A stretch of 64,000 nt of DNA, taken from NCBI RefSeq assembly GCF_046105845.1, contig NZ_CP151004.1, one strand, 5' to 3'. Every line of letters starts with the position of its first letter. The stretch's first letter is position 1. Positions 29,259 to 35,785 of the stretch are shown piece after piece. Made by a program: the position numbers and the translations under genes. Source of the DNA: Escherichia coli (GTDB taxonomy: Bacteria > Pseudomonadota > Gammaproteobacteria > Enterobacterales > Enterobacteriaceae). The notes under the pieces were generated by a model. It was not told the origin of the DNA. It saw nothing but the letters and a program-made list of their open reading frames with translations, and searched no databases.

Positions 29259-31760
29259 CTAGTCGATCAGAACTTCAGGAAGTATTAATTCAACCTTTAT
29301 TTCCTGATCATTGTCTCTATTAAAGTTTTCTGTGTTTCCGTTATCATCAGTTACTCCCTCCTTTTGCGTCCCTTCAGCAAAGTATGCAATATATTTTGTG
29401 TTCGCATAAGGTATGCCATAATCATCCACAAAGTGAAACTGAAGGTTATATTCCCCGCTCTCAATCAACGGAAATGCCATTAGTTCCGGCGTCAGCTTCG
29501 CCTTCGGCTTACGACCGTAATATCCCGCCTTAACGTTATATTCTCCCGGCGTTCCAGCTTCTATCCCGCAGGCATCCAGCCGGATATAGCTGCCACCGCC
29601 GTTTAGGGTGATTTTCTTCTTCGCGGTGATCTTGATCTCATCTTCCGTACTGGTGATCACTATCGATTTCTGAGCCAACAGTTCCATCAGATCGTTCTGT
29701 GCCTGTACCGAGATCGCCCCCTTGTTGGCAAACAGCTTGATACCCGCTTTGCGCACAAACACGCTCAACGCCTGACCCACACCGATAAACATATTCTTCA
29801 CAACACCGATATCAGCGTGATTTCCTGCGTTCGCGATCAGGTTTTTCGATGCCGCCAGTTGCAGGTGCTCTCCGCTGGCGATCGCCACGCCTTTGGGTGC
29901 GCTTAGCAGGATCGCAGCCTGCGTCAGATCTTTTACACTCTGCTGCAACAGCGCTATCTGTGATGACAGATCTGCCGGATCGGCATTCGCCGTCTGCGCA
30001 TCAGTGGACAGCGACTTCATCTGTGACTGTGCGCCATCCAGTATTGCCATCGCCGGAGCCATTTCGCGCACCTGACCCTGCGCCTTGTCCTGCGCGTCGG
30101 CGCTGATAAAGATGCCTTTCTTTGCCCGCACCGCGCCCCACAGATCGGTACGCAGTTCAAAGCCTTCCCCGCGCTGCTGTTTCCCGGCGTCCACCAGATG
30201 ACCGAGGTTTAGCTGGCTCTTGCCGCCGTACTCGGTACTGACCTTGATATGCTCTTTGCCGCGCTCGTCATCCAGCCGGATTTTGTTGTTTGCCGGGGTG
30301 CGCAGCACGTTACGCTTGTAGTTCTGGATGGTCACATGGTCGGTGTGCGCCGAGTCGTGCTTTACCCCGGCGATATACGGTCGGTCCGGGTTGCCTTCCT
30401 CAAAGGCGATACTGACTTCCGTTCCCGCCAGCAGCGGCAGGTGCAGGCCGTAGGTGTCTCCCGCATACGGGCGCGACTGGCGCACCCACAGGCTTTCATA
30501 ACCCGGTTTCCACGTCTCGCGGTCAAAGTCGAGGTTGACCCGGTAGCGCCCGTCCTTGTCGATATGGGCATAGATATCGTTCTTCACCGTGCTGGTGACC
30601 CGCGCCGGGAGCGTTCCGGCCATGACCGGGCGGGGGATAAACGCCGGGCGGTAGCCGTAGCGTTCTGAGTACGGGATAGCGGTAAACGTCAGTTCATAGC
30701 TGCGGTCACGCGCCGCGCTGGCCGTCACGCCGGTAATCAGTACGCCCTTGCGGAACACCGCTGGCGCGTCGTCGCCCTGAACCCTGATTTCCAGCCCCGG
30801 CATCAGCAATGAACTGGTGCTCTGGCCTTTGAGAATGGCCTGTTCATTCAGGTAGCGTTCGTGGCGGATACGGGCATAAAACGCGCCGCTTTCCGCTGAT
30901 TCCTGGTCGCCTTTTTGCAGGAAGTTGTCGGCGTAGTGATAGGCTTCGCCGTAGGTGGTGTTATCGCCCCCGGTGGCGTCATGCTGCTCTGTCATCATCT
31001 CTGCTGTGGCGGTGCGGTAGTTGTAGTCCCGCGTGGTGACGCTTTTCTCCACCACGCTGTATGCCGTGTTCAGCCCCCATACGGCTTCCGTTTCACCATC
31101 AAACAGCCCTGAAGTATGGCGAAGCGGCAGCGTCAGTCCGCGCTCGTAGCCGCTCTGGTCGTCGTAAAACTCGACAACCTCAATTTTCAGCCGGGCGTCG
31201 GTGGCAAAGCGGAACCAGATACCCACTTCCGACAGCAGGCGTGAAATAAACGTCAGGTCGTCCTCACCGTACTGCATCACCTGTTCACGGGACGGGTATT
31301 CGCTTTTGAGGTTAAACACGAAGTCCTGACCGCGCATCTGATGCCGCTCGCGCAGGATTTTTTCGACGATTTGCGGCACCGTCAGATTCTGGTAGATGGC
31401 GTTCTGGCGGCTGCGGGCCAGCAGTGCCATACGGGGTTCAAGGCGCACTTCGTAACGGGCTTCATCCTGTGACGAGGAGAGATGTTTAAAGCCAGTAATG
31501 ACCCCGTACAGGGTGCGCAGGGGGGCCTGCACCGGCATTCCCTGTACGGGCGGTGCCGTCAGGCTGAATGCGCCGTCCTGCATCAGCACCGACTCCGGCT
31601 CGATGGCTTTATCGGTACTGGTAAACTTAATGTCGTAGCGGAAGGGGGCGCTGAGTTGCTCACTACCCGTAAAGGTCAGCACGTCCACCGGGCTTTTCAG
31701 GCTGCGAATTTTGAGCTTGTGGTGCGCGTGGTTAAAGTTTAGGGCAGGAATATTCATCAT
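29259..31760 (-). CDS. vgrG: T6SS spike protein VgrG (copy B) with divergent C-terminal extension
   Basis: 833 aa; gp27/gp5-like VgrG core nearly identical to copy A; unique N-terminal ~45 aa and C-terminal ~70 aa. Confidence 0.9.
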   Translation of the reverse strand: MMNIPALNFNHAHHKLKIRSLKSPVDVLTFTGSEQLSAPFRYDIKFTSTDKAIEPESVLMQDGAFSLTAPPVQGMPVQAPLRTLYGVITGFKHLSSSQDEARYEVRLEPRMALLARSRQNAIYQNLTVPQIVEKILRERHQMRGQDFVFNLKSEYPSREQVMQYGEDDLTFISRLLSEVGIWFRFATDARLKIEVVEFYDDQSGYERGLTLPLRHTSGLFDGETEAVWGLNTAYSVVEKSVTTRDYNYRTATAEMMTEQHDATGGDNTTYGEAYHYADNFLQKGDQESAESGAFYARIRHERYLNEQAILKGQSTSSLLMPGLEIRVQGDDAPAVFRKGVLITGVTASAARDRSYELTFTAIPYSERYGYRPAFIPRPVMAGTLPARVTSTVKNDIYAHIDKDGRYRVNLDFDRETWKPGYESLWVRQSRPYAGDTYGLHLPLLAGTEVSIAFEEGNPDRPYIAGVKHDSAHTDHVTIQNYKRNVLRTPANNKIRLDDERGKEHIKVSTEYGGKSQLNLGHLVDAGKQQRGEGFELRTDLWGAVRAKKGIFISADAQDKAQGQVREMAPAMAILDGAQSQMKSLSTDAQTANADPADLSSQIALLQQSVKDLTQAAILLSAPKGVAIASGEHLQLAASKNLIANAGNHADIGVVKNMFIGVGQALSVFVRKAGIKLFANKGAISVQAQNDLMELLAQKSIVITSTEDEIKITAKKKITLNGGGSYIRLDACGIEAGTPGEYNVKAGYYGRKPKAKLTPELMAFPLIESGEYNLQFHFVDDYGIPYANTKYIAYFAEGTQKEGVTDDNGNTENFNRDNDQEIKVELILPEVLID
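29470..31640. repeat. About 2.2 kb direct repeat, vgrG core copy B
   Basis: Near-identical nucleotide sequence to 33504..35675 (proteins differ at only scattered residues across about 720 aa). Confidence 0.85.

Positions 31761-35785: not shown

Follow-up and report, generated by a model that had tools for sequence, protein, structure and literature searches.

A stretch of 64,000 nucleotides of the Escherichia coli contig NZ_CP151004.1 (assembly GCF_046105845.1), hereafter the window, carries two vgrG genes in tandem within a gene cluster for a type VI secretion system (T6SS). In our reading, to which we assign a probability of roughly 0.85, this region is the variable cargo bay of the E. coli T6SS-1 cluster and contains two modules one behind the other, each consisting of a vgrG gene with its own tip, an effector gene and an immunity gene. 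The bay is bounded by clpV on one side and by a conserved gene for a 404-aa protein and tssM on the other. Seen from clpV, vgrG_B comes first and is followed by the cargo genes o296 and o205 (cassette B), and vgrG_A comes second and is followed by o267, o298 and o125 (cassette A). Comparison with other E. coli genomes demonstrates, at the level of sequence, that tip, effector gene and immunity gene move together as one module of low G+C content.

Exchange of a complete module between lineages

Direct evidence for modular exchange comes from E. coli 536, where the order vgrG-o296-o205-vgrG is found at a chromosomal site different from that in the window. A block comprising tip B, o296, o205 and the intergenic sequence (31767..33517) is 99.3% identical to its counterpart in strain 536 and contains only 12 mismatches, while mismatches are dense from position 33518 upward and from position 31766 downward. 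The block thus ends just upstream of the vgrG_A start codon on one side and 14 nt into the core of vgrG_B on the other. Within it, tip B is 100%, o296 99.4% and o205 98.9% identical to strain 536, as compared to 93.0% for the core of vgrG_B, 94.9% for the core of vgrG_A and 93.9% for clpV. As the identity of the module lies far above that of the flanking cores, the module must have been exchanged between lineages long after the cores had diverged. Cassette A behaves similarly when compared to strain R12 (97–99% identity versus 95% for the core), and the difference points in the same direction but is less sharp.

Base composition tells the same story. Both cores have a G+C content of 0.58, the two tips of about 0.375 and the five cargo genes of 0.31–0.40, and the break coincides with the end of homology. 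The low G+C content common to tips and cargo identifies their base composition as foreign to the cluster. In addition, tip type co-varies with cargo type among 12 VgrG proteins from seven loci. The initial annotation had suggested that effectors were acquired in a modular fashion by recombination within the conserved vgrG core, and this idea is supported by the jump in identity to strain 536, by the break in G+C content and by the co-variation of tip and cargo. The comparison of the locus across genomes, which it had also called for, revealed one to three vgrG copies and varying cargo. A search for inverted repeats of at least 40 nt between positions 26000 and 40000 found none, and a site-specific mechanism acting at the module borders (via inverted repeats, IS elements or integrase sites) receives no support.

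Two vgrG genes with a common core and different ends

Both vgrG_B (33296..35785, minus strand, 829 aa) and vgrG_A (29259..31760, minus strand, 833 aa) are intact open reading frames (ORFs). The encoded proteins match the NCBIfam model TIGR01646 with 451 and 456 bits at a cutoff of 122 (E-values 1.9e-136 for VgrG_B and 6.5e-135 for VgrG_A). BLASTN aligns 29470–31724 with 33504–35758 without a single gap over 2,255 bp, with 121 mismatches, i.e., 94.6% DNA identity, and 97% identity of the encoded protein; a repeat finder seeds the same pair. These direct repeat copies (copy A, 29470..31724, G+C 0.583; copy B, 33504..35758, G+C 0.584; both on the minus strand) have a spacing of 4,034 bp and represent the vgrG core with its gp27/gp5-like and DUF2345 parts. 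Identity between them amounts to 95.3% for 29470–31614 and to 80.9% for the terminal 110 nt on the 5' side of the genes (31615–31724), and falls to 31–39%, which is chance level, beyond either end of the repeat.

The same picture emerges at the protein level. Residues 49–764 of VgrG_A are 97.6% identical to VgrG_B (699/716) and residues 8–48 are 80.5% identical; the extreme N-termini differ in length by three residues, and the last 68–69 residues are barely alignable and share remote similarity. Two VgrG proteins alike across about 720 residues with distinct ends, each preceding its own, different set of genes, had been described in the initial annotation, and both points were confirmed. Its term "near-identical" was an overstatement given a DNA divergence of 5.4%. 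The repeat that it had placed at 29470–31640 and 33504–35675 does exist, but its 5' limit lies about 85 nt further on.

Could the second copy be an assembly artefact, created by duplication of one vgrG gene or by the mis-joining of two loci? It is true that repeated vgrG genes trouble short-read assemblies (PMC10711316) and that public contigs end inside vgrG. On the other hand, 121 sites, most of them synonymous, distinguish the copies, neither reading frame is interrupted, tips and cargo differ between the copies, and the same arrangement occurs at every inspected locus with cassette B, a cassette that 40 complete E. coli genomes carry with at least 99% identity. An artefact has virtually no probability left, and we consider it refuted for practical purposes. 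Of the 121 mismatches, 94 reside in third codon positions, and dS and dN (synonymous and non-synonymous divergence) between the two genes are 0.20 and 0.016, respectively (dN/dS 0.08). The two copies are therefore old alleles under purifying selection; they are neither a duplication artefact of assembly nor products of recent duplication.

A related alternative holds that one vgrG gene was recently duplicated in situ and that its tip then diverged or was replaced, in which case the array would be home-grown and not built from imported modules. The copies are indeed tandem, collinear and free of gaps, and gene duplication has been put forward as one main origin of multiple vgrG copies within families (PMC6971182). 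A recent event is hard to reconcile with a dS of 0.20, which is as large as that between alleles of different genomes and chromosomal sites. Five core alleles (A and B of the window, A and B of strain 536, and that of R12) are 93.0–95.4% identical to each other in pairwise comparison and group neither by genome nor by position; their informative sites alternate in blocks. Furthermore, the presence of a cassette B with 99.3% identity to strain 536 within a background of 93–95% requires module transfer, and the foreign G+C content of tips and cargo also argues against a home-grown array. We therefore regard duplication in place as improbable and prefer the tandem arrangement of imported modules.

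Mismatches between the two window copies are clustered. The longest identical run comprises 194 nt (P=0.001 for random placement by codon position), and one 50-nt stretch contains 15 mismatches, a value that was reached in no simulation. Within the core of vgrG_B, about 17 substitutions accumulate in about 76 nt (33809–33884), where vgrG_B differs alike from vgrG_A of the window, from both copies of strain 536 and from R12. This patch has the appearance of a short tract imported from a more distant allele.

The alignment of the 12 VgrG proteins also shed light on the N-terminus, the form of which tracks the position in the array and not the cargo. This applies to the first eight or so residues only. 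Proteins encoded proximal to clpV start with M-(G/N)-(I/V)-Q-(N/F)-F, as in VgrG_B (MGIQNF…, encoded at 35759–35785), and those in second or third position start with M-x-(I/T)-P-x-L-N-F, as in VgrG_A (MMNIPALNF…, 31725–31760). Residues 9–48 constitute a mosaic of polymorphisms.

The initial annotation had predicted that short-read assembly would collapse the repeat. This also went too far, in view of the length of the longest identical run and of the contigs observed. The window copies share 76 of 2,129 127-mers and not a single 195-mer. Public contigs bearing the cassettes (Logan, ENA) are 1.2–2.9 kb long, are not collapsed and end inside vgrG on both sides, with their ends located 77–143 codons into the flanking vgrG or neighboring genes. 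Fragmentation has been reported where several vgrG genes are present (PMC10711316). Thus, short-read assembly would lead to tangles or breaks at the vgrG repeat rather than to a collapse of the copies. As contigs break inside vgrG, vgrG copy number and effector content are unreliable in draft E. coli assemblies, and T6SS typing is better scored by tip/cargo modules than by the presence of vgrG.

Domain architecture and the boundary between core and tip

VgrG_A and VgrG_B have the same order of Pfam domains, namely Phage_GPD, Phage_base_V, T6SS_Vgr and DUF2345, ending near residue 745. The gp27/gp5-like spike domains (Phage_GPD, Phage_base_V, T6SS_Vgr) are recognized with E-values of about 3e-56, 7e-09 and 1e-31 in both proteins, and DUF2345 (PF10106) with 2.6e-48 in residues 606–746 of VgrG_A and 1.5e-47 in residues 603–743 of VgrG_B. 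About 85 residues past DUF2345 are without Pfam match in either protein. VgrG_A matches PDB entry 2p5z, a 491-residue "Type VI secretion system component" (E=0), and also 6sjl, the full-length VgrG1 of enteroaggregative E. coli (EAEC) in complex with Tle1 (E 1.3e-192).

The 12 VgrG proteins are collinear through the sequence "…KLTPELMAFP(V/L)" and fall into discrete tip types beyond it. In VgrG of adherent-invasive E. coli (AIEC), residues 750–767 form a linker and residues 768–824 a TTR adaptor that contacts the N-terminus of Tle3, and the same TTR domain binds Tle1 in EAEC (PMC9860674). From these positions it follows that the repeat ends at the boundary between linker and adaptor. Tip A (LIESGEYNLQFHFVDDYGIPYANTKY…; 29259..29469, minus strand; last 69 codons plus stop; G+C 0.374) is probably a TTR-like adaptor, which aligns with the TTR domain of EAEC VgrG1 (6sjl residues 729–831, E 1.2e-7) with a z-score of 15.5 versus shuffled sequences. 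Tip B (VISAKFDEQVRVIDDDGKF…; 33296..33503, minus strand; last 68 codons plus stop; G+C 0.375) appears to be a divergent adaptor of the same kind. It resembles tip A, the M35-type tip and the EAEC TTR domain beyond shuffled sequences (z 6.2–9.6, reached by at most two of 2000 shuffles) and carries a D-x-x-G…Y…G…G-x-T-D-x-x-G pattern.

Cargo of module B

The effector candidate of module B is o296 (32412..33302, minus strand, 296 aa), for which an N-terminal domain with ADP-ribosyltransferase (ART) fold and a C-terminal glycine-zipper region are predicted. Searches of the cargo proteins including o296 against Pfam and NCBIfam yielded no significant match, and a PDB sequence search with o296 returned none either. 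The protein belongs to a family labeled "glycine zipper family protein" in the sources, with 344 homologues in Enterobacteriaceae, Pseudomonas, Burkholderia, Vibrio and others. An AlphaFold2 model of o296 built from 41 sequences is confident at residues ~27–211 and poor at the glycine-rich C-terminus. Invariant residues are R46 (strand 43–48), S103-T-S105 (strand 101–105) and D169-K-E171 at the start of strand 171–175. In the model, they appear to lie on the strands expected for an enzyme of the R-S-E type, with the acidic pair being D-x-E versus the canonical E/Q-x-E. Fold, motif and gene context together lead us to infer that the N-terminal domain is ADP-ribosyltransferase-like.

The partner gene o205 (31805..32422, minus strand, 205 aa) overlaps the stop of the effector gene by 11 nt, and its product is without signal peptide and presumed to be a cytoplasmic immunity protein. 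It is homologous (z 31.6) to a 207-aa partner encoded beside an o296 homologue in a Pseudomonas T6SS cluster. In this core cluster from Pseudomonas sp., the pair is located directly after a 175-aa PAAR gene and not after vgrG. A gene for a 169-aa protein with a faint CarboxypepD_reg match follows the pair; it was considered as a stand-alone TTR protein related to tip B and dropped, since the similarity had a z-score of about 0.

Members of the o296-type family were seen in Escherichia, Klebsiella, Enterobacter, Salmonella, Pseudomonas, Burkholderia and Vibrio. We tentatively propose, as a possibility and not as the favored outcome, that they make up an uncharacterized, widespread family of free-standing T6SS effectors that combine an ART-fold enzyme with a glycine zipper and are accompanied by a cytoplasmic antidote of about 205 aa. 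In this scenario, the toxin would be carried or inserted across the inner membrane of the target cell by its glycine zipper and neutralized by the conserved partner. The same membrane-crossing role has been proposed for the glycine zipper of Tde1 (PMC10240207). A literature search combining ADP-ribosyltransferase, glycine zipper and T6SS retrieved no paper on the o296-type family, and surveys of T6SSs in Klebsiella and Salmonella make no mention of glycine-zipper or M35 effectors.

Cargo of module A

The effector candidate of module A, o267 (28449..29252, minus strand, 267 aa), resembles zinc metallopeptidases of the M35 aspzincin type. The residues H168-E169-x-x-H172 (C-H-E-x-x-H) and G183-G184-M185…D189 (G-G-M-x-x-x-D) are invariant in eight homologues. 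Proteins of 262 and 246 aa encoded after vgrG in strains 536 and MCJCHV-1 are 26–34% identical to o267, and a 262-aa protein from strain MEW has been named "M35 family metalloendopeptidase" by PGAP. The match of o267 to PF14521, the Pfam M35 model, stays below threshold (i-E 0.057, 14.3 bits), NCBIfam gave no match, and a PDB search with o267 found no sequence match to VgrG2b. Assignment of this candidate to the M35 aspzincin family therefore depends on the aspzincin fold of its model and on the motif, from which we infer it. A word-indexed search recovered five homologues of o267 and a full HMMER search 123.

The partner o298 (27501..28397, minus strand) has a hydrophobic, signal-like segment at its N-terminus and is presumed to be a periplasmic immunity protein. 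The true start of the gene is probably located about 12 codons downstream of the listed GTG. The protein is 96.5% identical to a 286-aa protein of strain R12 and 27–31% identical to partners of other M35-type effectors. The third gene of cassette A, o125 (27127..27504, minus strand, G+C 0.384), encodes a small predicted lipoprotein with the lipobox L-T-G-C and is present in the R12-type cassette at 98% identity.

A final alternative proposes that one of the modules is a decaying remnant, which would leave a single working pair of spike and cargo. Relatives do show such decay, with a split o296 (MS 16-3), remnants of vgrG and of an immunity gene (MCJCHV-1) and frameshifts in tssM or tssG. In the window itself, the two vgrG genes are intact, as are the five cargo ORFs, dN/dS across the cores is as low as 0.08, and catalytic motifs are conserved. 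We consider it very improbable that only one pair is in use and retain the reading of two complete modules.

Crossover between tandem vgrG genes in relatives

The initial annotation had also described the repeat as a substrate for deletion or duplication of the intervening cassette. In relatives this is the case, as evidenced by a chimeric gene and by vgrG copy numbers of one to three; for the pair in the window it was not seen. Strains MEW, with two vgrG genes, and CFIAFB20140388, with one, share a clpV gene with 100% identity and a downstream flank with 99.9% identity. In MEW, one vgrG gene is associated with a DUF4123/DUF3304/DUF2235 cassette and the other with an M35 cassette. Up to nt 1236, the single vgrG of CFIAFB20140388 agrees with the clpV-proximal gene of MEW at all 113 informative sites, and from nt 1293 onward it agrees with the distal gene at all 382, which places the crossover between nt 1237 and 1292. 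From this perfect switch we conclude that one unequal crossover between two tandem vgrG genes gave rise to the single gene, or that the reverse took place. Tandem vgrG genes do recombine in nature.

In strain MCJCHV-1, the second vgrG is preceded by 94 nt from the interior of a vgrG core, next to which the final 36 codons of an o205-like gene are preserved; the two pieces correspond to window positions 30679–30772 (vgrG core) and 31761–31913 (o205 side). They look like a scar left when a middle module was deleted. The 153-bp remnant of o205 recurs in 76 further complete E. coli genomes.

Setting and distribution of the locus

The gene order tssB-tssC-tssK-tssL-tagL(OmpA)-hcp-clpV-vgrG…tssM-tssA-PAAR…tssF-tssG is that of E. 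coli T6SS-1. The window is collinear, with 93–97% DNA identity, with the annotated T6SS-1 loci of E. coli 536, R12/MP1, MEW and CFIAFB20140388, and its flanks are 97–99% identical to E. coli. The upstream anchor of the variable region is clpV/tssH (35797..38442, minus strand; tssH in collinear E. coli loci), and the downstream anchor is the gene for the 404-aa protein (25852..27066, minus strand, G+C 0.56), which occupies the same place in every examined locus and is named "KPHS_23130 family T6SS system protein" by PGAP. NCBIfam models identify Hcp (38633–39124) and likewise TssM. The island adjoins a tRNA-Asp gene (49399–49475), the same site as in CFIAFB20140388.

Cassette B was detected in 41 of 5,426 complete E. 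coli genomes, in 40 of these with at least 99% identity, and cassette A in five, at 97.7%; none of the 5,426 genomes contains both. At every cassette-B locus inspected, i.e., in strain 536, ERP001, the L003 assembly and MS 16-3 (with split o296), the order is vgrG-o296-o205-vgrG. A single vgrG is present in R12, MP1 and CFIAFB20140388, two are present in 536, MCJCHV-1, MEW and the window, and three in MS 16-3. In the latter array, a DUF4123/DUF3304/DUF2235 cassette is followed by the o296 cassette and then by an M35 cassette. Here, o296 consists of ORFs of 131 and 165 aa and is probably frameshifted.

Some further features of the cluster deserve mention. An ORF for a 479-aa protein (19424–20863, minus strand) is situated directly downstream of a tssA-like ORF, at a place where relatives have a PAAR-domain toxin; in MEW, the gene at this position is annotated as "colicin E3/pyocin S6 family cytotoxin". 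The ORF is probably another variable effector slot. The listed start of the tssM ORF (22463–26113, GTG, 1216 aa) probably lies too far upstream, as the ORF overlaps the gene for the 404-aa protein and homologues have about 1108 aa. Several of the compared strains have core T6SS genes annotated as frameshifted, namely tssG in MEW and tssM in both MCJCHV-1 and CFIAFB20140388. Many of the T6SS loci compared here may therefore be inactive despite intact cargo modules.

Proposed mode of action

Both VgrG proteins provide a common spike body, formed by the gp27/gp5-like domains and the DUF2345 beta-helix, and each carries a distinct, predicted TTR-like adaptor of about 68 residues. By analogy to EAEC VgrG1-Tle1 and AIEC VgrG-Tle3, each adaptor would dock the effector encoded directly downstream, such that one apparatus could deliver two toxins. 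Given the signal-like N-terminus of its partner o298, the M35-like metallopeptidase would probably act in the periplasm; the ART-fold/glycine-zipper protein, whose partner o205 is presumed to be cytoplasmic, would probably act in or across the inner membrane. Related genomes show that the flanking vgrG cores supply the homology for the exchange of modules by double crossover, and that a whole module is lost, or conversely gained, through one unequal crossover between tandem cores.

Several points weigh against this reading. The pairing of each tip with its cargo is putative and was read from the genetic linkage of their types. Tip B is without direct sequence match in PDB, its assignment to TTR being based on weak though significant similarity, and the structure model of o267 was built from only eight aligned sequences. 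The event that distinguishes MEW and CFIAFB20140388 may be either a loss or a gain, and no genome near the backbone of the window was found to show a crossover of its own vgrG pair; exact-sequence look-ups with VgrG_A and VgrG_B likewise returned no record. The single vgrG genes of R12 and L010, which are associated with cassette A, were considered as clean chimeras of a B-type 5' part and an A-type 3' part and rejected as such; both are mosaic, because their backbones are about 5% diverged from that of the window, and uninformative for its pair. Moreover, mismatch repair would lower recombination between the window copies at 94.6% identity.

Comparison with known systems

The locus illustrates, at the level of sequence, how a single T6SS machine acquires weapons and gives them up, with the conserved spike gene serving as the recombination handle. 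Tandem vgrG-effector modules in E. coli T6SS-1 and the loading of cargo via TTR domains are already published, and the window is a new combination of modules. It adds to the known pattern the jump in identity at the module border, the perfect chimera and the tentative assignment of an ART-like fold to the glycine-zipper cargo. Current understanding is left unchanged, and the ART-fold/glycine-zipper cargo family is the only lead toward something new.

The closest counterparts are EAEC VgrG1-Tle1 and AIEC VgrG-Tle3 (6sjl/6sk0; PMC9860674), which agree with the window in cluster type, gene order, the four VgrG domains, a linker/TTR boundary at residues ~765–768 and an effector encoded directly downstream. 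They differ in that the cargo in the window is an M35-like peptidase and an ART-fold/glycine-zipper protein and not a Tle phospholipase, that two tandem spikes are present instead of one and that tip B is only remotely like the EAEC TTR domain. In general, the variable C-terminal region of VgrG determines cargo specificity (review, PMC6971182).

Arrays of several vgrG genes have been described for the T6SS-1 locus of sequence type ST131, in which three different vgrG genes are each followed by putative effector ORFs (PMC10711316). That paper connects the layout with the "vgrG islands" that it cites from Ma et al. 2018. The presence of the three genes varies widely across ST131 (10.1101/2025.01.23.634537). 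The ST131 and 536 loci resemble the window in having several vgrG genes per T6SS-1 cluster, each with its own putative effectors and variable presence, and strain 536 has the B module in the same position of the cluster. In contrast, the window pairs the B module with an o267-type M35 module, and its island is located at tRNA-Asp.

Vibrio cholerae exchanges effector-immunity modules by homologous recombination (PMC5361080). Its T6SS clusters share with those studied here the use of structural genes as homology for swapping, mosaic gene trees and remnants of old immunity genes, here in MCJCHV-1 (PMC5361080; PMC5527308). The difference is that here vgrG itself is the repeated homology, in two or three tandem copies, and that one unequal crossover is therefore enough to take out a whole module or to add one.

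M35-type toxins encoded next to an immunity gene have been put to experimental test in two cases, the C-terminal metallopeptidase of Pseudomonas aeruginosa VgrG2b and the stand-alone E. coli PAR effector (PMC6899460, PMC10673891). With these, the candidate o267 would have in common a zinc metallopeptidase toxin, a DUF2345-bearing VgrG and an adjacent immunity gene. Unlike in VgrG2b, o267 is a separate protein and not fused to VgrG, and its Pfam M35 score stays below threshold. Finally, o296 would resemble Rhs-borne ART toxins in its predicted ART fold, as judged by structure comparison, in the conserved arrangement of Arg, Ser-x-Ser and acidic-x-Glu and in the small cytoplasmic partner encoded next to it, but it is a free cargo encoded after vgrG, or after PAAR in Pseudomonas, and not the C-terminus of an Rhs protein, and it has a C-terminal glycine zipper.

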